NCBI RefSeq assembly: GCF_055900595.2
Contig: NZ_CM148325.1
Length of the DNA: 64,000 nt
Strand: one strand, 5' to 3'
Shown: positions 6,539 to 32,167 of the stretch, in pieces
Layout of the letters: every line of letters begins with the position of its first letter
Numbering within the stretch: the stretch's first letter is position 1
Notes under the pieces: model-generated
What the model saw: the letters and a program-made list of their open reading frames with translations, nothing else
What the model was told of the DNA's origin: nothing
Database searches by the model: none
Translations under genes and position numbers: made by a program

Positions 6539-7798
6539 ATGCTGGTATCTAACTATAATTATGTAATCAGCCGTCGTCGTTTACTGCAAGGTGCGGGCGC
6601 CATGTGGCTATTGAGCGTAAGTCAGGTCAGCCTGGCTGCGGTCAGCCAGGTCGTGGCGGTACGCGTCTGGCCTGCGTCCAGCTACACCCGCGTGACGGTA
6701 GAATCAAATCGTCAGCTGCAATATAAGCAGTTCGCGTTAAGTAACCCTGAACGTGTGGTGGTGGATATCGAAGATGTAAACCTGAACTCGGTACTCAAGG
6801 GGATGGCGGCACAAATTCGTGCAGACGACCCGTTCATCAAGTCGGCGCGCGTCGGGCAATTTGACCCGCAAACCGTACGCATGGTTTTTGAATTAAAGCA
6901 AAACGTAAAACCGCAGCTGTTTGCCCTTGCGCCGGTCGCCGGGTTTAAAGAGCGTCTGGTGATGGACCTCTATCCGGCCAATGCACAGGATATGCAGGAC
7001 CCGCTGCTGGCGCTGCTGGAGGATTACAACAAAGGCGACCTCGAAAAGCAGGTGCCGCCAGCACAAAGTGGTCCACAACCGGGTAAAGCAGGGCGTGATC
7101 GTCCGATTGTCATTATGCTTGACCCCGGCCACGGTGGCGAAGACCCCGGTGCGGTGGGGAAATACAAAACACGCGAAAAAGACGTGGTATTGCAAATAGC
7201 TCGCCGTCTGCGCTCTCTGATCGAAAAAGAGGGTAATATGAAGGTGTACATGACGCGCAATGAAGACATCTTCATTCCGTTGCAAGTGCGTGTAGCAAAA
7301 GCACAGAAACAACGTGCTGACCTTTTTGTTTCTATCCATGCTGATGCCTTTACCAGTCGCCAGCCGAGCGGTTCTTCCGTGTTTGCGCTTTCGACCAAAG
7401 GCGCGACAAGTACTGCGGCAAAATATCTGGCACAAACCCAGAACGCCTCGGACTTGATTGGCGGCGTGAGCAAAAGCGGTGACCGCTATGTCGACCACAC
7501 CATGTTCGATATGGTGCAGTCTCTGACCATTGCCGACAGCCTGAAGTTGGGTAAAGCGGTGCTGAATAAGCTCGGTAAAATCAACAAGCTGCATAAAAAT
7601 CAGGTTGAACAGGCCGGGTTTGCCGTGCTGAAAGCACCTGATATTCCCTCCATTCTGGTCGAAACGGCGTTTATCAGTAACGTTGAGGAAGAGCGCAAAC
7701 TGAAAACGGCAAGATTCCAACAACAAGTGGCAGAATCTATCCTAGAGGGAATTAAAGAGTATTTTTCGGATATAGACGCGTTAGCGAGAAAAGCATAA
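6539..7798 (+). CDS. amiC: N-acetylmuramoyl-L-alanine amidase AmiC-like, Tat signal; first residues differ from the AmiC N-terminus I recall
   Basis: 419-aa ORF with twin-arginine motif [19 protein letters not shown] and amidase_3 regions; preceded by 650 bp of AT-rich DNA without ORFs. Confidence 0.85.
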
Positions 7799-7979: not shown

Positions 7980-8600
7980 TGTCGTCGATATTCTTCCAGC
8001 GTCTTATTGTTCAGTGATTCATGTGTGCGTTCATAGCTATATTCTGATAACCATTTCTCCGTAATTTCTAGAACTTCATTCAGCGTTCTGAACAGATAAA
8101 AATCGAGTATTTCTGTACGGTGTGTCCTGTTAAAACGCCCAATAAAAGCGTTCTACGTCAGCTTACCCGGCTGGATAAACTCCCGTTTTACTGCGTGTAT
8201 ATCAGCCCATTCAGCCAGCGTTAGAGAGATAAATTCCGAACCATTATCTATGCGCAGCATGACCGGATAACTGCGATTTGCCGCGAACCTGCTGCCTCAG
8301 AACCTGAAAAAGTTTTGAAAAACCGTATCGAGGATATCGCTCGTCCACTGCCTGCACCACCACAATAACGGGGTCGTACCACGTGGTATCCGGACGGTAA
8401 TGGGAAACCGTTCTGCTCTGGTTCAGACTCCGGCAGGCCTGATGGACACTGAGTCCAAATGTCGTTATCTGATGAGTAACAAGCTCACGCTTACAGGCTG
8501 GTTTTAAAGCTTTTTTCGATAATGTCTTTCAATGCCGGTTCTCTAGGCTAAGGTCGGCAAGCATCTGTTTTGGACGTCGGTTCTCGTCCTCAAGATCCTC
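7980..8600 (-). pseudogene. IS3-family OrfB remnant, heavily decayed
   Basis: minus-strand translation shows scattered integrase-core-like stretches broken by many stops. Confidence 0.35.
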
Positions 8601-11440: not shown

Positions 11441-12057
11441 TCAGTGTAGCAAAAACGGGGGTGACCATAGATTTTTTATGATTTTCTCCGCTTTTTTCAG
11501 AATATCCAGTTCCATCTGCCGGCGGCGTATTTCCTGATTCAGTCGGGCGACTTCCTCCCGCAACGCATCGCGTTCTGCCTCCAGGGAAGGTTCGTTATGT
11601 TTACGCATAGTCTGGTAAGCACTGTTGCCGATAATTTCATCTTTCCATTTATACAATACCGCACGACTGACACCAATACGCCTAGAGATTTCACTGGCTG
11701 ATATTTGTCGTGTACAGAATGCCATGACAGCCTGACGTTTGACTTCTGGTTCAAAGGGCGCAACCGGACTGGTCTTACTGGTAAATATACGTCGTCTGCC
11801 GGGGTAACGTTCATTAACCCAGCGAGCGAGCACATCGGTACAGGGATAACCCAGAGTTCTACTGGTAAACGCTAGGCAGCAGCCGTGGTTAAGATAATGT
11901 TCAACGGCAACTTGTTTTTGCTCATCTGTGTAACGGGGCTTATGGCGAATGGATTCTTTTGCTCCGCCACCTGATTCCTATGAACGGATCCAACGCCGCA
12001 GATTTCTTTTCGAAGGGTAGCCCAGTTCGCGTACGACGGGAGCCAGCTTCTTACCAT
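11441..12057 (-). pseudogene. HTH transposase (OrfA-type) fragment, IS3-like
   Basis: HTH region ISASEISRRIGVSRAVLYKWK followed by coiled-coil ending ILKKAEKI; upstream part in a different frame. Confidence 0.4.
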
Positions 12058-12059
12058 TG

Positions 12060-13300
12060 ACTAGTCTTGGTATAAGTTGACACTTTTCTGTCTGTAAAAC
12101 GCCTGATGAACGTCATAGGGCGTTTTGTATTTCAGAGCCAGGTGTGGCCGCTCATGGTTATAAATTGCCACGGACTCTTGGACCATTTCCCGGGCCTGAG
12201 CCAGGTCTGCAGGACGCGAGAGTAAAAACTCATTTTTCAGGGTACCATTTATTCACTCAGCCAATGCTGGTAGCAGTCATAACCATCAGTCATTGAACAG
12301 GTTATTTCATTTCTTTCATGAACTGACTGATAGAGCGCTGAACAGTATTGCAGCCCCTGCCAGAATGATGCACCAGGGGACTCGTCGTTTTTCTCAGCTT
12401 CAGCACCTGTCTGAACGCTTTTACCACATTTTCTGTCTGCAGGTTTTCCCCAACATGGTAGCCCATAATTTTTCTGGAGCAGGCATCGGTGACCAGACTC
12501 AGATAGGCCGAACTATTGCGCAGTGGAAGGTAAGTAATATCGGCGACCCGGACCTGTTCTGGTTCAAGAGCAGTAACCTGTTCAGGGCCTGGTTTAAGCA
12601 GGTTTGGATGTCGGTAGAAGCGATGATGGCTGTTGGTAGTTTTGTGATATGACCGTTTTACTGGCACCAGGAGTCGGTATTCATCGGGCAGGTTAAACAG
12701 GCGGTCTCGCCCGATATTCAGCCTTTTATCGGCCTGAGTGTTCAGCAGATAGTGCAGCTTACGCGCACCGATTCGGGGCTGACGACATCTGACACGGGCA
12801 ACAAAATCAAGAACCTGAGCATGATGTTCCTGCCGTTTTCTGCGCCTTGCATTGTCCTGATACCATGCCTGTCTGCTGTGTCCCAGGAACAGACTGCACG
12901 CGTCACAGTTATTTTGGGGACCGGACTTTGCGCGAGGACTTGCCGGGCCGCTTTTTACGATACTCACCCCGTAATCATTTTTCAGGACATTGATAACTGA
13001 CTCAAAAAACGTAGCTTTCTGGTTCGCCAGCTCAAGCTACGTTTCAAGTTCCCTGATTCTTTGCTCGGGTGTGAGCGGGATAGTTGTCTGAGTCACAGGC
13101 AGTTTCCTCTTCACCAGCTCAGGAAGTCCAGGATATTTACGTAACCAGACAAGAACGGTGGAGCGCCCCTGAATGCCATACCGCTGCTGGGCCTGTTTAT
13201 AAGTCATCTCGCCTTTTTCAACCTGCTCAACAACAGCTATTTTAAAGGATAGAGGATAATCACGTTGGGTGCGTTTGAGCTAAGTCATCATTACGTTCTC
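12060..13300 (-). pseudogene. IS3-family element, orfA plus frameshifted orfB
   Basis: ORF 12302..12967 carries DITYLP and rve core; C-terminal tail (YNHERPHLAL) continues in another frame below 12302; OrfA-like HTH upstream. Confidence 0.6.
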
Positions 13301-13532
13301 CGGATTTAAGTAGGAACGTGTCAACGCTATTCAGGACGGGTCACATATTTGAAATAAAGCTCAATGGCGCGGATTTTTTCTTCTTCAGTAAACATGTTTC
13401 ATCTCCTGAGAGTCCAGGAAATCGTCCGCATCCCCATTACTGTCTTATATCATTGGCGCTGACAGCTATTCTGCTGAGCCTTGAGGATGCATAAACGGGT
13501 TAAGAGCTTGTATGTGCAGAACGATAGCGGAA

Positions 13533-22252: not shown

Positions 22253-23581
22253 CTGATGAATCCCCTAATGATTTTTATCAAAATCATTAAGTTAAGGTAG
22301 ATACACATCTTGTCATATGATCAAATGGTTTCGCCAAAAATCAATAATCAGACAACAAAATGTGCGAACTCGATATTTTACACGACTCTCTTTACCAATT
22401 CTGCCCCGAATTACACTTAAAACGACTCAACAGCTTAACGTTGGCTTGCCACGCCTTACTTGACTGTAAAACTCTCACTCTTACCGAACTTGGCCGTAAC
22501 CTGCCAACCAAAGCGAGAACAAAACATAACATCAAACGAATCGACCGATTGTTAGGTAATCGTCACCTCCACAAAGAGCGACTCGCTGTATACCGTTGGC
22601 ATGCTAGCTTTATCTGTTCGGGCAATACGATGCCCATTGTACTTGTTGACTGGTCTGATATCCGTGAGCAAAAACGGCTTATGGTATTGCGAGCTTCAGT
22701 CGCACTACACGGTCGTTCTGTTACTCTTTATGAGAAAGCGTTCCCGCTTTCAGAGCAATGTTCAAAGAAAGCTCATGACCAATTTCTAGCCGACCTTGCG
22801 AGCATTCTACCGAGTAACACCACACCGCTCATTGTCAGTGATGCTGGCTTTAAAGTGCCATGGTATAAATCCGTTGAGAAGCTGGGTTGGTACTGGTTAA
22901 GTCGAGTAAGAGGAAAAGTACAATATGCAGACCTAGGAGCGGAAAACTGGAAACCTATCAGCAACTTACATGATATGTCATCTAGTCACTCAAAGACTTT
23001 AGGCTATAAGAGGCTGACTAAAAGCAATCCAATCTCATGCCAAATTCTATTGTATAAATCTCGCTCTAAAGGCCGAAAAAATCAGCGCTCGACACGGACT
23101 CATTGTCACCACCCGTCACCTAAAATCTACTCAGCGTCGGCAAAGGAGCCATGGATTCTAGCAACTAACTTACCTGTTGAAATTCGAACACCCAAACAAC
23201 TTGTTAATATCTATTCGAAGCGAATGCAGATTGAAGAAACCTTCCGAGACTTGAAAAGTCCTGCCTACGGACTAGGCCTACGCCATAGCCGAACGAGCAG
23301 CTCAGAGCGTTTTGATATCATGCTGCTAATCGCCCTGATGCTTCAACTAACATGTTGGCTTGCGGGCGTTCATGCTCAGAAACAAGGTTGGGACAAGCAC
23401 TTCCAGGCTAACACAGTCAGAAATCGAAACGTACTCTCAACAGTTCGCTTAGGCATGGAAGTTTTGCGGCATTCTGGCTACACAATAACAAGGGAAGACT
23501 CACTCGTGGCTGCAACCCTGCTTACTCAAAATCTATTCACACATGGTTACGTTTTGGGGAAATTATGAGGGGATCTCTCAG
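22253..23581 (+). mobile_element. IS10, complete
   Basis: 1329 bp; outside end CTGATGAATCCCCTAATGATTTT at 22253, inside end ...GGGGATCTCTCAG at 23581. Confidence 0.95.
22360..23568 (+). CDS. IS10 transposase
   Basis: 402-aa ORF matching remembered IS10 transposase (MCELDILHDSLYQFCPELHLKRLNS...). Confidence 0.95.
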   Translation: MCELDILHDSLYQFCPELHLKRLNSLTLACHALLDCKTLTLTELGRNLPTKARTKHNIKRIDRLLGNRHLHKERLAVYRWHASFICSGNTMPIVLVDWSDIREQKRLMVLRASVALHGRSVTLYEKAFPLSEQCSKKAHDQFLADLASILPSNTTPLIVSDAGFKVPWYKSVEKLGWYWLSRVRGKVQYADLGAENWKPISNLHDMSSSHSKTLGYKRLTKSNPISCQILLYKSRSKGRKNQRSTRTHCHHPSPKIYSASAKEPWILATNLPVEIRTPKQLVNIYSKRMQIEETFRDLKSPAYGLGLRHSRTSSSERFDIMLLIALMLQLTCWLAGVHAQKQGWDKHFQANTVRNRNVLSTVRLGMEVLRHSGYTITREDSLVAATLLTQNLFTHGYVLGKL

Positions 23582-24922: not shown

Positions 24923-25659
<737 letters not shown>

Positions 25660-25669
25660 CTCTGTTCAG

Positions 25670-25879
25670 GTGACCAAATTCAGTGTGCCATTTCAGTCTG
25701 TAATGCGCTGTGTGAAAAAGCTCACTGACAGTCTGAGTATTTGTCTGCAAAGGATGGAAGCCCGTCGAGGGTTCCTGAAAACCACTGGTGCGCTGGCGAA
25801 TAAGCTGACAAGAATCATCTGGCGTGTTTTGAGCGATAGTATTGATTTTAATATGCAGAAGGCCGTTGTGATGAATTAA
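25670..25879 (+). pseudogene. IS110-family transposase C-terminal fragment
   Basis: TGALANKLTRIIWRVL C-terminal motif. Confidence 0.45.
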
Positions 25880-26301
25880 AGAAAAACAGTAAGTTATAGA
25901 AAATATTTTTAACTGAGTTTACATTCACTGATGAGATAACGGCTACCGCCCCTGTAACAGTCTGAAGTTGACCTGGGTAATCAAATACCGGTGTAGTGAT
26001 TAGGAAATAGGGCCCGGATAACATCATGGCGCAGGTCATTGAACCTACTAACGACGCCGGATATATGGTCGCAAACCGCATCGAACCAGTACTTGCCTCA
26101 TCTGGGACGTCCATATATGCTCAACAAAAGAGAGCGTTCAGAATTCTAGCCTCACATCATACCTGAAACCGCGTCCCGACCATAGATGATTTTATCGCCG
26201 GTTTTTTATGACAATTGTTATATTTCCGTAACAATCTTTCCGTAGACTCACGTGCATAAAAATGATTCCCCTTGAAATCGATTTTTTGAAAGGAAACCGC
26301 A

Positions 26302-28281
26302 ATGGGCAGACCGTTAAAAACTTTATTCAAACGTGAGCATAGTGAAGAAATCAGTAACCCGAGCGATAACCGCGCGTTTTCGCAGGTGGCGGAAGTCTAT
26401 TTGTCACGCCGCCGTCTGTTACAGGCAGGCACGGTCGCCGGTGCCGCGGCAGCGTTCCCATTTCTGCTGAAACAGGAAAACGCGCTGGCGAAAGTGGTCT
26501 CCAAAGCAAGCGGTAACCTCGGCAAAGCGACGACGCTCGGTTTCACCAGCCTGCCGGTTTCCACGGAAGATACCGTTATCGTGCCGGAAGGATACATCGC
26601 GAAGCCCTTCTACAAATGGGGCGACGCCACCGGGATTGCCGGAAATCTGCCGGTTTTTAAAACCGACGGTAGCAACACCACGGAAGAACAGGCGGCGCAG
26701 GCCGGGATGCACCACGACGGCATGGCGTGGTTTAGCCTGCCGCAGGGCGGGAACAGCTCCGATCACGGCCTGCTTGCCATAAACCATGAATACATCGATA
26801 ACGGTCTACTGTTTAAAGATGGCGATGCCAACTGGAGCGCCGATAAAGCTCTTAAAGGCCAGAACGCGATGGGCGTGTCGGTCATTGAAGTAAAAAAAGT
26901 GCCCCTGGGCTGGGAAGTGGTGCGCCCGTCATCGTTCGCACGCCGCATCACCGTTAACACGCCGATGAAAATCACCGGTCCGGCGCTGCATAACCCACTG
27001 ATGCAAACAGTTGACGATCCGAAAGGCGAAATCATTCTCGGCACCATGCAGAACTGTGCCAACGGATTTACGCCGTGGGGCACCTATCTGACGTGTGAAG
27101 AGAACTGGTCCGATATTTTCGTAAAAAAAGCAGAGATGAACCCGCTGGAAAAACGTTACGGTATCAGCGGGAGCGACGACTCTTACCGCTGGAACGAAGT
27201 GGATAAAAGGTTCAGCGTCGACGCCACGCCGAACGAGCCGAACCGCTTCGGCTGGGTGGTGGAAATCGATCCATACGATCCGCATTCAGTGCCGCGCAAG
27301 CACACCGCGCTTGGTCGCATCAAACACGAAGGCGCAGCGGTGACAATTGCCCCGGATAACCGCGTTGTGGTCTATATGGGCGATGACCAGAAATTCGAAT
27401 ACATATATAAATTTGTCTCGGAAGGAAAATTCAACCCGCAGGATCGCAAAGCCAACATGCACCTGCTGGAAAAAGGCACTCTGTACGTGGCGAAATTTAA
27501 CGACGACGGCAAAGGCGAGTGGCTACCGCTGGTGTTCGGACAAAATGGGCTCGACGCCAGTAAAGGGTTTGAAAACCAGGGCGACCTGTTGATTAAAACC
27601 CGTCTGGCGGCAGACGCCGTGGGGGCCACTAAAATGGACCGCCCGGAGTGGATTGCGGTCGATCCATATCACGCCGGCAGCGTTTACTGCACGCTCACCA
27701 ACAACAGCGATCGCGGTAAGGAAGGAAAAGCGCCAGTGGATGCGGCCAACCCGCGCGCCAAAAACGTTTACGGCCACATCATTCACTGGTTGGAGCATAA
27801 CGGTGACCCGACCGCGCTGCAGTTTGCCTGGGATATTCTTGTGATGGGCGGTCGCACCGATACAGACAAACTGGAAACCAAAGGCAGCATGAAGGGTGCG
27901 GAATTCGGCAGCGCCGATGGCCTGAGCTTTGATCACCGCGGCGTGCTATGGATCCAGACCGACGTGTCGTCATCAACCATAAATATTAAAGATTACAAAG
28001 GCATGGGCAACAACCAGATGGTGGCGACGATTCCCGGTACCAATGAGTTCCGCCGCTTCCTGACCGGCCCGCGCGGCTGCGAAATCACCGGCATCGCGTT
28101 CACTCCGGATAACCGGACGCTGTTTATTAACATCCAGCACCCTGGCGAGCCAAGCGAAGGGCTTAGCGATCCGCAGCATCCGACGGCAGTATCAAGCTGG
28201 CCTGACGGCGATAAGGCTGGTCGTCCGCGCTCCTCAACTGTCGTTATCGTAAAAGCCGACGGCGGCATAATCGGCACCTGA
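26302..28281 (+). CDS. PhoX-family (DUF839) Tat-secreted phosphatase-like protein
   Basis: 659-aa ORF with twin-arginine signal SRRRLLQAGTVAGAAAAFP and beta-propeller-like repeats. Confidence 0.55.
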   Translation: MGRPLKTLFKREHSEEISNPSDNRAFSQVAEVYLSRRRLLQAGTVAGAAAAFPFLLKQENALAKVVSKASGNLGKATTLGFTSLPVSTEDTVIVPEGYIAKPFYKWGDATGIAGNLPVFKTDGSNTTEEQAAQAGMHHDGMAWFSLPQGGNSSDHGLLAINHEYIDNGLLFKDGDANWSADKALKGQNAMGVSVIEVKKVPLGWEVVRPSSFARRITVNTPMKITGPALHNPLMQTVDDPKGEIILGTMQNCANGFTPWGTYLTCEENWSDIFVKKAEMNPLEKRYGISGSDDSYRWNEVDKRFSVDATPNEPNRFGWVVEIDPYDPHSVPRKHTALGRIKHEGAAVTIAPDNRVVVYMGDDQKFEYIYKFVSEGKFNPQDRKANMHLLEKGTLYVAKFNDDGKGEWLPLVFGQNGLDASKGFENQGDLLIKTRLAADAVGATKMDRPEWIAVDPYHAGSVYCTLTNNSDRGKEGKAPVDAANPRAKNVYGHIIHWLEHNGDPTALQFAWDILVMGGRTDTDKLETKGSMKGAEFGSADGLSFDHRGVLWIQTDVSSSTINIKDYKGMGNNQMVATIPGTNEFRRFLTGPRGCEITGIAFTPDNRTLFINIQHPGEPSEGLSDPQHPTAVSSWPDGDKAGRPRSSTVVIVKADGGIIGT

Positions 28282-28331
28282 TTCTGTTTCATCCGTCATT
28301 AAAAACGCAGGCGCGGTTAGCCTGTGTTTTT

Positions 28332-28930
28332 ATGGTAAAGTCCTGTCAGTCCGCGCGCTGGCTTCCTTCAACGCTTTGTCGTAATTTTTGTCAGTCTGCT
28401 CGTAGTCTGGAATGCCCGGAATTCCTCAACGCTATGCCACTGTTCAGGCGCGGTGTGATGAGAGTGGCGTCGCTGGGTTATGCCTTTCCGGGCACGATTC
28501 TGGCGATTGGTTTTCTGACTCCCTAAATGACCGCTGGCTGGCGGAACTACTGGATTACAGGGGGTTACCTTTAATGTCTGTCGGTGTCCTGTTGGTGATT
28601 TGCTGTACGATGCGATTTCAGGCAATAGCCATCGGCGCACTTGATGTCCGGCTGGGACGTATACCAGAGTCACTGGAACAAGCCTCACGTCTGCTGGGAG
28701 AAAATGGTACAGGAACTTTTGTTCGGGTTCACTTTCCTGTGTTGCTCTGGTGAGCAGTGCCCTGCTGGTTTTCACTGATGCGATGAAAGAACTGCCAGTA
28801 ACACTTCTTTATGCTGAAGCAGCCCGTGGAACTTTTGAAGAAGGGGCCATCTCTGCTTTAATGATTGTTCTTGCAGGGACATTTCCGGTTATTTTGTTTG
28901 TTCCAGCTGAAAGACTGAAATCAGAGGATT
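28332..28930 (+). pseudogene. ABC transporter permease, C-terminal fragments with frameshifts
   Basis: hydrophobic permease segments spread over three frames. Confidence 0.5.
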
Positions 28931-28933
28931 GAT

Positions 28934-29600
28934 TATGTCTGAAGAAACAGCTTTATGTATTAATGATGTCCATGTTGTTTATCCCAATAGCCCATATCCT
29001 GTATTGCGGGGCGGGGGGTATGTCAGTCTGTAAAGGTGAACTGGCATGTCTGCTTGGTACATCAGGTTGTGGAAAAACAACAGTACTACGTGCTGTAGCT
29101 GGTTTTGAGCGCCTGAACAAGGGGAAATTTTTGTATCACAGCATTGTGTGGCCAGCGCAGATATGCATTTTCCGCCGGAGAAATGTCATGTCGGTATAGT
29201 CTTTCAGGAATATGCGCTCTTTCCCCACCTTACAGTTTCACAAAACGTGGCTTTGGTCTGAGAAGACTGCCGAGAGATGTACAGCGAACCAGAGTTACAG
29301 AACTGTTGAAAATGGTGGATTTATTCCACTATTCAGACAGCTATCCTCATGAACTTTCAGGAGGTCAGCAGCAACGTATTGCCCTTGCAAGGTCACTGGT
29401 TCCAAATCCAGATATCCTGTTGCTAGATGAACCATTTTCCAGCTTGGATAAAAAACAAGGGTAGGACTGAGCCGTGAAGTTCGTGATATTTTGCATGAGG
29501 CAGGGCAGACAGCACTTTTAGTCACTTACAGTGAACACGAAGCATATTTGATGGGGGCTCGTATTAGATATGTTAAAAACGGACAATATTGGGAAGGGTA
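28934..29600 (+). pseudogene. ABC transporter ATP-binding protein, multiple frameshifts
   Basis: Walker A LGTSGCGKTT, signature [15 protein letters not shown], Walker B LLLDEP found in different frames. Confidence 0.6.
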
Positions 29601-30080
29601 ACCTTGCCAGCAGACTGTCAAGATGTATTAAACAGGTCGATTAGCTGTAGGCGGGATAGCTCGCGGGATAAATCATCTGAGAATGTGCCATTTTCCGGGC
29701 TGTTATGGGGGACAGGCATTGCTGGTTGTTGGTTCGTTGATGGAGGGAAAGCTGCAGCACAGATAATGGGGCTTTAGGAAAAGGAAAGACATAATAACCA
29801 CGACAAAGTGACTATCAAAGTGGGCCAAGGACATTTGAATGTTTGAGATAATAAATATTGTAATGAAGCTGAGGCTATTGCTACCACCACACACTACAGA
29901 ACCTGCACCATTGGATGCCAAGAACAACTGTCCTAATACATAGAAATGCTCAGATAAAAGTGTTTATGTCTCATCCGGCATGAAAACGATGAGCACATTA
30001 TCTACAATCCACAGGCCCTCCTATTTTCCCGCTTATACATTCCCCATCTTCCATTTTTCCTCACCCGCGCCGGCACCACA

Positions 30081-30109
30081 CTGTCATCTTTCTGAGGTTT
30101 TACTGTCTT
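30081..30109 (+). promoter_or_regulatory. pho-box-like repeats of the ugpB promoter
   Basis: CTGTCAT at 30081 and CTGTCTT at 30103, about 22 bp apart, upstream of the ugpB remnant. Confidence 0.4.
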
Positions 30110-30218
30110 ACACATGTAATAAAAAGTTATTTTTCTGCAATTCGGGCATGATATGTAATCCCGCGAGCATAAAACGAGTGAATTTGCACATCAGGTACAA
30201 CAAGCAAGAGAGATAAAC

Positions 30219-30790
30219 GATGAAACCGTTACATTATACAGCTTCATCACTGGTGCTCGGACTGGCGTTAATGGGCAATGCACAGGCAGTGACGACCATT
30301 CCGTTTTGGAACTCTATGGAAGGGGAAATGGGCAAAGAGGTGGATACAACTGGAAAACTTTAGCGCCAGGAACGGTCTGCCGTTTGCCAGCAAAAACAAC
30401 GGTTTTGACGCCACGGACGCGGTGCTGGAGTTCAACAAGCCGGAGCAGGTGAAACACATCGTCATGCTCGAGGAGATGAACAAGAAGGGCGACTTCATCT
30501 ACGTCGGGCGTAAGGATGAATCCACCGAGAAGTTCTATAGAGGTGATTGCGCGATGACCACCGCCTCTTCCGGTTCTCTTGCCAACATTCGCGAGTACGC
30601 CAAATTCAACTACGGCGTAGGCATGATGCCTTACGACGCTGACGCGAAAGATGCACCACAAAACGCCATTATCGGCGGAGCCAGCCTGTGGGTGATGCAG
30701 GGCAAAGATAAAGAAACGTATACCGGCGCAGGCGAAAAGCTGGCGGTAGGGGAATCATCGGATCTTTCTGCTCATCCGGCGTTATCTCCA
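30219..30790 (+). pseudogene. ugpB: ugpB remnant: N-terminus, large internal deletion, 3' truncation
   Basis: [27 protein letters not shown] then stop; resumes [12 protein letters not shown]...[22 protein letters not shown]; diverges after about 30745. Confidence 0.7.
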
Positions 30791-30990
30791 TAGGTAATAA
30801 TTCAACGCCTGCGTCAGAAGTGGTTGTTACCGGAAGACGCCGCGAAACACGCCCTTCGTTTTGCCAGAGTCTGAGCCATTTGAAAATAACATTATCATTG
30901 ATGCCAGACTCTCGTGCAATCTGGGCCACACAGGCTCCGGGTAAAAGAGTTTGCTGAACAAGTCTCCATTTTTACTCTGGTGAAAATCGG
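30669..30990 (-). pseudogene. IS3/IS66-type OrfA (HTH transposase) remnant
   Basis: RRNRFSPE-KWRLVQQTLLPGACVAQIARESGINDNVIFKW with in-frame stop. Confidence 0.4.
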
Positions 30991-31024
30991 TTCCGACGGG
31001 TTTTCTCTGTTTTTACAGGCTGAG

Positions 31025-31272
31025 TCACTGTCGGGGCTGAATATTATCGCCCCGGGAAAAGAGCCCGGTCAGTTGCACGCAGGAATATTCACCAGAAAGA
31101 TGCCCGTCAGTGAATACCTGATGAAATCGCCTCACCAGAGAAAAAATAGCGGTTTTGCTGACACCGGTCTGTGCAGAAATGCGCGGGTACGACAGTGTCT
31201 CGTCAAATTTCAGTTGTAGCAAACGCAGGATCAATTCCGGATTATCTGCCAGTACCGCCTTTCGTGCATTCA
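31025..31272 (-). CDS. hypothetical HTH-domain protein
   Basis: MNARKAVLADNPELILRLLQ...YPRISAQTGVSKTAIFSLV; start taken at internal Met of ORF 31025..31393. Confidence 0.3.
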
Positions 31273-31556
31273 TCGTAAATGTCCTTTTACTGCGAAAATG
31301 GACATTAGCATAGGAAACAGGAAAGGGAGGCGAAAGACGTTTTAATGAGACGGTTACTTTTTCTGCGCTCCTGCTGTTTTTTCTTAATCTCATCCAGTCG
31401 CTTCCCCGCGTTCGCCAGGTGCTCCTGTGTCACCTTCCCGCATGGATGGTCTTTCAGGTCGTAACGCACGCCACCAGCCATCAGGGCCGGTAATGTTCCA
31501 CCAGCGGTATATATTCTCCCGAGTCACGCCCGCTGGTATCGTGTTTCCCCCGCCAG

Positions 31557-31877
31557 TTAATAACCGTCATCGTTAACGCTATCAGGGTAATCGCGCCATA
31601 TTTCATCAGTAAGCGACGGTAGCCCCATTTTTTGTATTGTCCTGTCTGCGGCCTTTCTGACTGTATGAATATCAATACGGCTTTCAGGTATCGGGCGTTT
31701 TGCCTTCCTGATACATTCCCTTGCTCTCATTACTGCAAGCTGTCTGTGACTGTCTTTCTCAAGAGTAATCATCACATCCTGCCACCTTCTGGCAGCACGT
31801 CGCCACAGTCCCCTGCTCTCGAGTTCTTCCGCTGTCGCGTCGCTTATTGTCCGGCTCTTCAGTGTGCTGTTGTTCAT
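31557..31877 (-). CDS. PerC-family transcriptional regulator (PerC/Pch-like)
   Basis: 106-aa ORF with LESRGLWRRAARRW, RECIRKAKRPIPE and WRDYP motifs. Confidence 0.6.
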   Translation of the reverse strand: MNNSTLKSRTISDATAEELESRGLWRRAARRWQDVMITLEKDSHRQLAVMRARECIRKAKRPIPESRIDIHTVRKAADRTIQKMGLPSLTDEIWRDYPDSVNDDGY

Positions 31878-31894
31878 GTTGCGCCCCGCTTAAT

Positions 31895-32167
31895 TCATAA
31901 GGGTATATCATCTCCGTAAGTGGCGTCGCCTCCCGTTGGTGGCTGATTACCCTGTGTACCTGTGGTTTCGCGTCTGCTTCCTCCTGGCCGCACCGTTTGA
32001 GTACTGATTACGCTGTCTGCGATAACCTGCCGTCCCTGCCGCGTTTTCCCGTTCTGCCCTGTCCACTGGCTGACCTGCATGTTACCTGCCACGCTTACCA
32101 GTTCGCCTTTCTGGTGTCTGGCCAGTGCTTCGGCCTGTCTGCCAAACGCCAGCACAGATAACCACAT
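31895..32167 (-). pseudogene. single-stranded DNA-binding protein, C-terminal fragment
   Basis: FGRQAEALARHQKGELVSVAGNMQVSQWTGQNG resembles the SSB OB-fold C-terminal half; Gly/Gln-rich linker; acidic tail DDIPL. Confidence 0.5.

Follow-up and report, generated by a model that had tools for sequence, protein, structure and literature searches.

A decayed ABC importer and a truncated second ugpB as probable dead cargo of an Escherichia coli pathogenicity island

The region at 28332–30790 of the window (the whole 64,000-nt stretch of DNA analysed, to which all coordinates refer) is best read as dead cargo of a horizontally acquired E. coli pathogenicity island, produced by ordinary gene decay with no chromosome rearrangement (probability about 0.85). 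It carries remnants of an ABC permease gene and an ATPase gene, followed by a remnant of ugpB which, on comparison of alleles, is shown to be an extra copy independent of the resident ugp operon and appears to descend from an island-borne gene (ugpB2), the intact version of which is evidently the ancestral state. Features that an initial annotation had described here are present in the sequence close to where it placed them, with the corrections given below. The main features of the region and its surroundings are:

26202–28377, plus strand: Cronobacter-like phoX block
26302–28281, plus strand: phoX, intact, encoding a 659-aa PhoX
~28303–28333: terminator-like hairpin in the phoX block
28378–28932, plus strand: ABC importer permease pseudogene, 5′-truncated (~aa 361–554 of a 562-aa two-domain permease)
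28935–29601, plus strand: ABC transporter ATP-binding protein pseudogene, nearly full length (aa 3–218 of 227)
29602–29961: unassigned spacer of 360 bp, separating the ABC remnant from the ugpB2 segment
29962–30736: ugpB remnant overall (upstream region and codons 1–42, 461-bp deletion, nt 583–977, IS66 tnpA junction)
29962–30219, plus strand: ugpB2 upstream region, a homologue of the K-12 livF-ugpB intergenic region that begins at a REP element at −256
30071–30121, plus strand: PhoB-motif matches in 11-bp register, strongest at 30071–30088 (11.6 bits) and 30104–30121 (11.1 bits)
30220–30363, plus strand: 47-codon ORF (UgpB signal peptide and mature residues to codon 42, five frameshifted codons, TAG)
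30341–30345, plus strand: deletion junction, the single TGGAT left of two 5-bp direct repeats, with 461 bp lost (equivalent to nt 127–587)
30341–30736, plus strand: ugpB nt 583–977, not in the reading frame of the start codon; ugpB frame free of internal stops
30756–31357, minus strand: IS66-family tnpA pseudogene fragments replacing the ugpB2 3′ end (blastn homology to IS66-like tnpA copies)
37631–38848: integrase, abutting ynjA

The window is collinear with the chromosome of E. coli SCU-115, where an island of ~90 kb lies between ynjB and ynjA with backbone order kept. Its cargo in SCU-115 includes iuc/iutA (aerobactin), sit, an eib-like gene, ibrAB, sodC, iha and phoX, together with many IS pseudogenes. 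The clean insertion between ynjB and ynjA means that the large rearrangement raised in the initial annotation is not supported. Flanks of conserved backbone genes, a terminal integrase, virulence genes among the cargo, a high density of IS elements and a distribution limited to a minority of strains all mark this as a genomic (pathogenicity) island; tRNA-adjacent integration is not seen, ARAGORN finding no tRNA genes in the window, while a related module in BEN2908 is located at tRNA-Leu. The 2.5-kb block studied here was present in only 51 of 5426 genomes, was 99.9–100% identical across those 51 complete genomes and two metagenome contigs, and was 100% conserved among ~46 genomes. That the island spread recently is the simplest explanation of this conservation, with selection as a less likely one. 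AR13438 has a 52-bp tandem duplication inside the permease remnant, and in BEN2908 the block has an IS3-type truncation at 28818, BEN2908-type islands being without the whole ugpB2 segment; both changes are ongoing neutral variation. RefSeq already labels the ABC, ugpB and IS66 pieces as pseudogenes. No Rfam families were found in the region, and a scan for sigma-70 promoters and terminators gave nothing beyond shuffled expectation except the terminator-like hairpin of phoX.

Immediately upstream, the phoX block and a Cronobacter-type locus (iol-MFS-phoX-metNIQ-like) agree at 91.8% of nucleotides. The encoded protein, an intact PhoX family protein according to PGAP, shares 96% identity with a cluster representative that bears the name Cronobacter universalis. 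The end of this block (28377) abuts the start of the permease remnant exactly. An origin of phoX and the ABC genes as neighbours in one donor was considered and rejected, as the Cronobacter-type locus runs into metNIQ-like genes and homology stops at 28377. A literature search on phoX in E. coli islands returned nothing relevant.

The decayed permease and ATPase genes reported upstream of ugpB by the initial annotation were confirmed, with three and four frameshifts, respectively. The permease remnant has also lost 13 codons and contains an early stop codon (TAA at 28524), and the ATPase remnant has an H-loop His-to-Tyr change. Against the intact proteins of E. coli CX21, the permease remnant shows 71–85% aa identity per segment across three frames (tblastn, E 1e-62) and the ATPase remnant matches with E 1e-47 (tblastn). 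PGAP labels them ‘iron ABC transporter permease, frameshifted, missing N-terminus’ and ‘ABC transporter ATP-binding protein, frameshifted’, the former being a generic label. The nearest intact database relatives of the permease are 80–86% aa identical and carry PF00528; a protein search found no closer intact ABC transporter with >86% aa identity. Homology to a BPD_transp_1 two-domain permease and an ABC_tran ATPase relates the pair to importers of the Fbp/Pot/Thi/PhnS2T2U2 type, of which it lacks both intact frames and a cognate solute-binding protein (SBP) gene. Assignment to an equivalog (PhnS2/T2/U2 or FbpABC) failed, as even the intact relatives, whose best NCBIfam matches are the 2-aminoethylphosphonate PhnS2/U2/T2 models, score only 49–257 bits against cutoffs of 393–593. 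The best genomic contexts of these relatives are Klebsiella-type loci without phoX or ugpB nearby. The ABC remnant is unrelated to ugp. The spacer that follows it occurs only in island copies, and its ORFs have no Pfam match; nor does it resemble the L,D-transpeptidase gene that follows the ATPase gene in the intact relatives.

Alignment to the K-12 ugpB-livF region, as the initial annotation had advised, placed two parts of the remnant (29962–30345 and 30341–30736) on ugpB. The former begins 256 bp before ugpB and ends at codon 42, with 84% identity (118/126 in the coding part). The 5′ end is therefore real, as described; however, of the 48 codons said to be intact, the ORF has 47, of which only the first 42 are ugpB codons, four of them substituted relative to K-12. 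The signals for translation initiation (start codon and Shine-Dalgarno region) are intact, as is the signal peptide, and PGAP annotates the ORF as a hypothetical protein (WP_001470085.1), with the same ORF in EC17CM2. The stop, the large internal deletion and the 3′ truncation are likewise all present, except that the first two are a single lesion: the TGGAT repeats correspond to K-12 ugpB nt 122–126 and 583–587, and deletion between them shifts the frame. The nt 583–977 piece has 95.5% identity to K-12 and 94.9% to intact island ugpB, and is a mosaic of island-type and native E. coli-type sites plus eight unique substitutions, with the best native alleles 97.1% identical over 30346–30590. The last 340 nt of ugpB are missing, and homology to IS66-family tnpA begins at 30756, past a gap of 19 bp. 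PGAP labels this segment ‘IS66-like element accessory protein TnpA, frameshifted; internal stop’, and tblastn with an ISEc8-type TnpA gave no match because a different IS66 subfamily is involved.

Identity of the fragments with a different solute-binding protein is excluded, NF008211 (UgpB) being the only NCBIfam match for both (E 1e-11 and 8e-63), with profile positions 225–335 covered by the nt 583–977 piece. Scores of 44 and 212.6 bits fall below the NF008211 cutoff of 411 (full length ~438 aa), and this, together with the deletion, frameshift and 3′ loss, makes the locus a pseudogene that encodes no member of the UgpB family. The ugp operon context (ugpA, ugpE, ugpC and ugpQ downstream) is also absent, its place taken by the IS66 tnpA fragments.

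The intact ugp operon that the initial annotation proposed to look for does exist elsewhere: native livF-ugpBAECQ is present in 5421 of 5426 genomes, island carriers included, and in SCU-115 the livF-ugpBAECQ-yhhA-ggt locus is intact. The remnant has only 76% (promoter), 91% (first 126 nt) and 92.7% (nt 583–977) identity to SCU-115’s own ugpB. Its promoter is 72–79% identical to those of eight Escherichia alleles, which are 89–100% alike mutually, and nt identity of the remnant to E. coli ugpB ranges from 84 to 96%. Of the ‘displaced duplicate’ that had been suggested, the extra copy thus stands, but it is not a duplicate of the resident gene, and the remnant is therefore uninformative on loss of Ugp function.

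Three states of the island-borne gene were identified: intact (4 genomes), with the 461-bp deletion only (2), and with deletion plus 3′ truncation (46, including the window; SCU-115 and F11 are carriers of this state). Intact ugpB2 (WP_072643672.1; 438 aa, 1317 nt) is found in the complete E. coli genomes EC6563, LS45, XH992 and HCM-24C-3 in the order phoX, permease′, ATPase′, ugpB2, IS110′, phytase-like esterase, and is also an orphan, followed by IS110′ with no ugpAECQ. Window positions 24932–30345 are 99.83% identical to the EC6563 locus, with zero mismatches across 29935–30305, which covers the promoter, while 18 sites differ in nt 588–827. EC17CM2 corresponds to EC6563 minus exactly 461 bp, with the natural 3′ end kept. 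Relative to K-12, ugpB2 has 52 synonymous and 13 nonsynonymous codon differences, pointing to past purifying selection. The ugpB2 segment is bounded by REP elements homologous to those of the K-12 livF-ugpB and ugpB-ugpA spacers. The exact ugpB2 protein is indexed in 160 assembly-collection blocks, and in the blocks inspected phoX lay upstream and/or the phytase-like gene downstream wherever neighbours were listed.

Two scans for a donor of ugpB2 gave no candidate. Genome contigs containing a conserved 23-mer yielded only alleles of E. coli, E. whittamii and Escherichia sp., all of them no closer than K-12, and one 279-bp contaminant contig, and metagenomes searched with an island-specific promoter 25-mer gave only two contigs, both from the same island. 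This donor comparison did not extend to E. albertii, E. fergusonii, E. marmotae and E. ruysiae.

Pho-box-like repeats had been noted at 30081–30109, and these are real by homology: an array at ~30071–30142 is homologous to that of K-12 ugpB and keeps the same 11-bp register, with phased units at 30070, 30081, 30092, 30103 and 30114. A window-wide scan with the pho-box consensus gave 7 matches against 5.4 expected, not above chance, so support for the boxes comes from homology and phasing, not from statistics. Motif scores were obtained with a PhoB position weight matrix built from the 58 ChIP-seq sites of PMC10294691, leaving out the ugpB site. The homologue of the K-12 ChIP-mapped site (30082–30099) scores 4.0 bits here vs 15.3 in K-12, TGTCATCTTTCTGACACC of K-12 reading TGTCATCTTTCTGAGGTT in the window, and sites of at least 10 bits number 20 in the 64-kb window, as expected by chance in scanning. 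Differences from the K-12 promoter were initially considered as decay, an interpretation dropped as the identical promoter precedes intact ugpB2; the boxes are therefore those of the native ugpB2 promoter, not decayed K-12 boxes. PhoB may still be able to bind the promoter of the remnant, from which a short RNA for the 47-aa signal-peptide stub may arise. Titration of PhoB by this promoter, as the initial annotation had suggested, is implausible and unlikely to matter, because the PhoB concentration rises to the micromolar range when phosphate is limiting (PMC4447250), dozens of PhoB sites with no transcriptional effect are already tolerated by E. coli (PMC10294691) and the mapped-site homologue scores so low. 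We infer that the surviving promoter is physiologically inert.

The arrangement suggests that four pieces of different origins were brought side by side in a mosaic, IS-riddled island: an intact Cronobacter-like phoX; the last third of the permease gene plus the whole ATPase gene of an FbpBC/PhnU2T2-like importer from an enterobacterial donor; a REP-bounded Escherichia-like chromosomal segment of ~1.6 kb, carrying ugpB with its own PhoB-type promoter, beside an IS110-family element; and IS66 debris. ugpB2 would once have been a working orphan second copy, as it presumably still is in some strains. Deletion of 461 bp between the TGGAT repeats would have caused the frameshift, and the 3′ 340 nt and the downstream genes would then have been lost at the junction with the IS66 tnpA fragment, an order suggested by the three states only. 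Along the way the gene presumably recombined in patches with alleles of the resident ugpB and acquired point mutations. Substitutions cluster at the deletion junction (5 in the 40 nt to its left, 18 in the 250 nt to its right), and recombination and decay explain these clusters only loosely.

That the genes are otherwise intact, with frameshifts and a deletion created by errors of sequencing or assembly, has a negligible probability: homopolymer errors do mimic frameshifts in some long-read assemblies, but identical lesions recur in 51 independent complete genomes and the two metagenome contigs, and they include truncations at both ends as well as the 461-bp and 13-codon deletions, beyond the reach of single-base indels. 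Displacement of the resident ugpB, or of a duplicate of it, to the ast-chb region by a large rearrangement or duplication is very improbable. The fragment is unmistakably ugpB and this gene normally maps far from xthA-ast, as such a displacement would have it, yet the order ynjB, island, ynjA is undisturbed, the native operon is in place, identity to intact island ugpB reaches 99.8% against the lower values for SCU-115 ugpB, and where the island occurs in other chromosomal arrangements the fragment goes with it; for SCU-115-type carriers displacement is refuted. It is just as hard to sustain that the ABC genes and the ugpB piece formed one operon, with a UgpB-like binding protein serving the transporter. 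The pieces are adjacent on the same strand and both specify ABC importer components; however, the intact relatives carry their own, different SBP gene upstream of the permease gene, an unrelated spacer intervenes, the ugpB2 segment has its own promoter and REP-element bounds, and all copies of the ABC genes seen are already degraded, including those in strains with intact ugpB2. The ABC remnant is no operon partner of the ugpB piece.

Two further possibilities concern the promoter. Co-option as a PhoB-responsive orphan or decoy, driving the 47-aa stub or antisense transcription into IS66 tnpA′, ProQ/FinO′ and PerC, and thereby tying island regulators to phosphate starvation or buffering PhoB, is improbable. 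Consistent with it are the two in-phase PhoB-motif matches of 11–12 bits at 30071 and 30104, identity to the promoter of intact ugpB2, the intact translation start and signal peptide, and invariance of the block in 46 genomes. This invariance, however, equals that of adjacent junk (the frameshifted ABC genes) and thus reflects recent common descent; matches of such strength are at chance level, the ChIP-mapped site has fallen in score, a single site cannot titrate a micromolar regulator in cells where inert PhoB sites are common and tolerated, and BEN2908-type islands have lost the whole segment. Somewhat less doubtful, though still unlikely, is that the region is a wrecked accessory Pho-regulon module, in which three exported proteins for phosphorus scavenging (Cronobacter-like PhoX, orphan UgpB2 and a phytase-like esterase) from different donors would have been assembled on ExPEC/APEC islands, with some lineages keeping all three, the window’s only phoX, and the promoter of the ugpB remnant still a PhoB-responsive orphan. 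phoX, ugpB2 and the phytase-like gene each have a PhoB-motif match of 11–12 bits ~80–150 bp upstream of the start, that of phoX lying at 26216.

Dead cargo of an island remains the preferred reading, and it is of little general biological consequence. Mosaic pathogenicity islands commonly contain remnants of genes, and RefSeq already marks those described here as pseudogenes. The value of the analysis is mainly corrective, the locus being no evidence of chromosomal rearrangement, while the three-state ugpB2 series provides a small worked example of stepwise pseudogenisation. If phoX (elsewhere with ugpB2 and the phytase-like gene) is PhoB-regulated, ExPEC/APEC strains would gain capacity for phosphorus scavenging from the island, which, if true, would be of modest interest to the field of the Pho regulon and virulence.

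Compared with K-12 ugpB (b3453), the remnant shows homology between −256 and codon 42 and across nt 583–977, with the same signal peptide and 11-bp pho-box register, but its promoter is only ~79% identical, with a 1-bp deletion that shifts the proximal boxes, and it differs from K-12 ugpBAECQ in the 461-bp deletion, the loss of 340 nt at the 3′ end and the lack of ugpAECQ behind it. The intact ugpB2 locus has the same phoX, permease′ and ATPase′ flank as the window, but behind the gene carries IS110′, the phytase-like esterase gene, rpiR, a PTS gene and nanE, where the window has IS66, ProQ′, PerC and SSB′. The Klebsiella-type importer (WP_032669183/85/86 in E. coli CX21; beside ldt-cobTSU in other Enterobacteriaceae) has the order SBP (345 aa, SBP_bac_11/6 type), permease and ATPase, followed by an L,D-transpeptidase gene, and matches the remnant in its 562-aa permease and 227-aa ATPase; the remnant, however, is only 66–68% nt identical, lacks the SBP gene and the first ~360 permease codons, and is frameshifted throughout. 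With mosaic islands of ExPEC/APEC type (aerobactin, sit, iha) the island of the window has in common a terminal integrase, genes for virulence and iron uptake, densely packed remains of IS elements and pseudogenes, and a distribution that varies from strain to strain. It differs in its site, which is ynjB-ynjA, the window having shown no tRNA gene.

In the window, the ORF listing and a reading of 27800-31400 give only short broken frames, with no long ORF, from 28281 to ~31000. Alignment of the livF-ugpB region of E. coli K-12 to the window yielded two collinear ugpB pieces here, while tblastn of the proteins of intact ABC relatives (E. coli CX21) and three-frame translation mapped transporter remnants upstream:

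26302-28281, phoX, intact 659-aa gene preceding the broken-frame stretch; encodes a Tat-type alkaline phosphatase (PhoX), Cronobacter-like in origin
28378-28932, permease remnant, beginning at about residue 361; three frame changes, premature TAA at 28524, 13 codons missing
28935-29601, ATPase remnant, nearly full length; four frame changes, H-loop His-to-Tyr
29962-30345, ugpB piece 1, equivalent to the K-12 stretch that starts 256 bp before ugpB and ends at codon 42; 84% identity overall, 118/126 in the coding part
30341-30736, ugpB piece 2, equivalent to ugpB nt 583-977; 95.5% identity to K-12
30220-30363, ORF of 47 codons, 42 from ugpB (entire signal peptide) and five out of frame

The initial annotation had read this anatomy correctly, including the heavily frameshifted permease and ATPase genes, and its gene names hold: the UgpB equivalog NF008211 is the sole NCBIfam assignment for both ugpB fragments, rather than another protein. 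The reported 3′ truncation is also present, ugpB homology ending at 30736, 340 nt before the natural stop, with IS66-family tnpA homology starting at 30756 on the opposite strand. The start region of ugpB is retained, but with 42 intact ugpB codons, not 48, and the described stop and large deletion both exist but are one lesion rather than separate events. The two pieces overlap by TGGAT, found at ugpB nt 122-126 and 583-587, and a 461-bp deletion between these 5-bp repeats accounts for both features, since 461 is not divisible by three and a TAG follows five codons on.

The 2.5-kb block is 99.9–100% identical in 51/5426 complete E. coli genomes, where PGAP calls all of its pieces pseudogenes, a status already flagged in RefSeq. 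The window is collinear with the island carrier E. coli SCU-115, except for an additional IS10, and in SCU-115 the block lies within a ~90-kb island between ynjB and ynjA that carries aerobactin, sit, an Eib-like adhesin, ibrAB, sodC, iha, phoX and dozens of IS pseudogenes. K-12 backbone order is kept on both island flanks; the region is an insertion, and the large rearrangement proposed earlier can be set aside. A tyrosine recombinase gene (island integrase; 37631-38848) adjoins ynjA (39006-39554) at the island edge. No tRNA gene was detected within the window; for a large pathogenicity island, insertion at a site other than a tRNA gene, here between ynjB and ynjA, is unusual. The 1.3-kb insertion absent from the SCU-115 island (22253-23581) is identified as IS10 by its 402-aa transposase ORF and a full Rfam match to RNA-OUT (22298-22367, minus strand). 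The island also contains a sequence that matches the isrN Hfq-binding sRNA family over its full length (8363-8505; 138 bits) and, in a low-GC stretch (39–47%), a 419-aa gene named AmiC by PGAP (Tat-exported amidase; 6539-7798), presumably a second, island-borne amidase copy. Embedded in the island just downstream of the ugpB remnant (31557-32167, minus strand) are genes reminiscent of plasmid or ICE leading regions: a PerC-family regulator (PF06069, 97 bits), a ProQ/FinO fragment and a truncated SSB. The backbone portion of the window has a match to the Rfam sRNA family ES036 (CssrF; 51662-51704) that barely exceeds the gathering score (42.9 vs 37.6 bits).

An intact ugp operon does exist elsewhere: SCU-115 has livF-ugpBAECQ-yhhA-ggt at the normal position, and at least 80% of ugpBAEC is present in 5421/5426 genomes. 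Native ugpBAEC varies more than expected across E. coli (95.3–100% to K-12), and in E. coli 3CM a TPR-protein gene replaces livF upstream of ugpB. The remnant was compared with eight Escherichia alleles (K-12, MS 200-1, 3CM, E69, SCPM-O-B-8794, E. whittamii, Escherichia sp. E1V33 and SCU-115). Remnant identity to these is 72–79% in the promoter, 90–94% in the first 126 nt and 91–96% over nt 583-977, versus 89–100%, 95–100% and 93–99.7% among the alleles themselves. With only 76%, 91% and 92.7% identity in the same segments to SCU-115's own ugpB, the remnant is not a copy of the resident gene, contrary to the suggested displaced duplicate. E. coli-like ugpB 5′ sequence on a 279-bp low-coverage contig of an Alkalicoccobacillus porphyridii assembly (NZ_VLXZ01000181.1) is almost certainly contamination.

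With the ugpB piece as sole query, identical copies numbered 46; two genomes matched at 97.7% and four at 96.8%. Matches in EC6563, LS45, XH992 and HCM-24C-3 fall in two pieces spanning 1235 bp, indicating a copy without the 461-bp deletion. The EC6563 island carries, in order, phoX, the permease and ATPase pseudogenes, an intact 1317-nt ugpB (WP_072643672.1; here ugpB2), an IS110-family pseudogene, a phytase-like esterase, rpiR, a PTS gene and nanE. This locus is 99.83% identical to window 24932-30345, with no mismatches in 29935-30305. The pho-box region of the window is therefore the promoter of island-borne ugpB2 rather than a decayed version of the K-12 one. Relative to K-12 ugpB, ugpB2 is changed at 67/1317 nt and 13/439 residues, and its 52 synonymous and 13 nonsynonymous codon changes are the signature of purifying selection during its evolution. 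In the assembly collection, 160 blocks index this exact protein, with phoX upstream and/or the phytase-like gene downstream at the places read, wherever neighbours were listed. Upstream of ugpB2, homology to the K-12 chromosome begins at a REP element 256 bp away; downstream, it ends in REP-like sequence 55 bp past the stop, adjoined by the IS110-family element. These limits suggest capture of a ~1.6-kb chromosomal segment from an Escherichia-like donor. Scans of genome and metagenome contigs did not find this donor.

Decay of ugpB2 can be followed through three states:

State A, ugpB2 intact; four complete genomes
State B, deletion only; two genomes
State C, deletion and also truncation at nt 977, with a junction to IS66 debris; 46 genomes, the window among them

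EC17CM2 and HCM-27C-1 have the same 461-bp deletion and 47-aa ORF and keep the natural 3′ end and IS110-family pseudogene/phytase-like neighbours; EC17CM2 matches EC6563 at 99.9% either side of the deletion. Substitutions cluster on both sides of the junction (five in 40 nt, 30306-30343; 18 in ~250 nt, 30346-30590), with four differences in ~5.4 kb elsewhere in the sequence common with EC6563. The left-hand five are common to states B and C. The 18 sites (ugpB nt 588-827) separate state C from A and B; ten agree with native E. coli alleles, the other eight being unique, and the best native alleles reach 97.1% over the patch. Patchy recombination with resident ugpB plus neutral decay fits loosely; the recombination explains only about half of these right-hand changes. 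Further neutral variation includes a 52-bp tandem duplication within the permease remnant in some island copies, as in E. coli AR13438 (equivalent window 28428-28480). In the leuX island of APEC BEN2908, the remnant ends at 28818 in an IS3-type truncation, and phoX and a permease stub alone are kept. These two travel together in at least two island types (ynjB/ynjA and leuX).

The ABC remnant has no binding-protein gene, and only the last third of its permease is left. Distant blastn found intact relatives (68% nt identity) in a Klebsiella-like region of CX21, arranged as binding protein (345 aa), two-domain permease (562 aa) and short ATPase (227 aa). The best NCBIfam models for these are PhnS2/U2/T2 and Pot/Cys/Fbp-type, and every curated cutoff is far above their scores, so no substrate is assigned and 'iron' is a generic label only. 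The closest proteins in a 5.8-billion-sequence collection (80–86% identical) are encoded beside an L,D-transpeptidase gene and cobTSU, with phoX and ugpB absent nearby. A single operon of the ABC genes and ugpB2 is ruled out, as the former are already wrecked where ugpB2 is intact. The phoX block (26202-28377) has 91.8% nt identity to a Cronobacter-type locus, and PhoX shares 96% identity with a cluster representative that bears the name Cronobacter universalis; phoX is absent from the ynjB-ynjA region of K-12. This homology ends 96 bp past the phoX stop codon, exactly where the permease remnant starts, and metNIQ-like genes come next in the Cronobacter-type locus. phoX, the ABC remnant and ugpB2 are thus separate, unrelated acquisitions that lie side by side in the island. 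As a whole, the region is a pathogenicity island's ordinary pseudogene debris.

PhoB sites were scored with a position weight matrix from 58 ChIP-seq sites, the ugpB site excluded (Fitzgerald et al. 2023, Table 1, PMC10294691). The K-12 ugpB promoter has phased sites of 15.3 (the ChIP-mapped TGTCATCTTTCTGACACC), 12.1, 9.8 and 8.9 bits. The island promoter has matches of 11.6 bits at 30071 and 11.1 bits at 30104; the homologue of the ChIP-mapped site (30082, TGTCATCTTTCTGAGGTT) scores only 4.0 bits, and a 1-bp deletion in an A-run weakens the proximal boxes. Real training sites range from 6.6 to 23.4 bits, and the 64-kb window holds 20 sites of at least 10 bits. PhoB binding at these candidate sites is plausible. 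Titration of PhoB by the surviving promoter, as earlier envisaged, is unlikely to matter, since PhoB rises to micromolar concentrations when phosphate is limiting (Gao and Stock 2015, PMC4447250) and over half of 65 regions bound by PhoB are transcriptionally inert, apparently tolerated as noise (Fitzgerald et al., PMC10294691).

One mildly interesting by-product is a possible accessory Pho module. In some strains the island has three phosphorus-scavenging genes for exported proteins, all intact: phoX, ugpB2 and, 3′ of intact ugpB2 and outside the window, the phytase-like esterase (PF13449, with signal peptide; EC6563 locus 12070-13413). PhoB-motif matches precede not only ugpB2 but also the phytase-like gene (12.4 bits, ~80 bp upstream, EC6563 locus position 11990) and phoX (11.5 bits at 26216), hinting at a horizontally assembled module of which the window would retain phoX alone; the homologous Cronobacter-type site ahead of phoX scores 13.6 bits.
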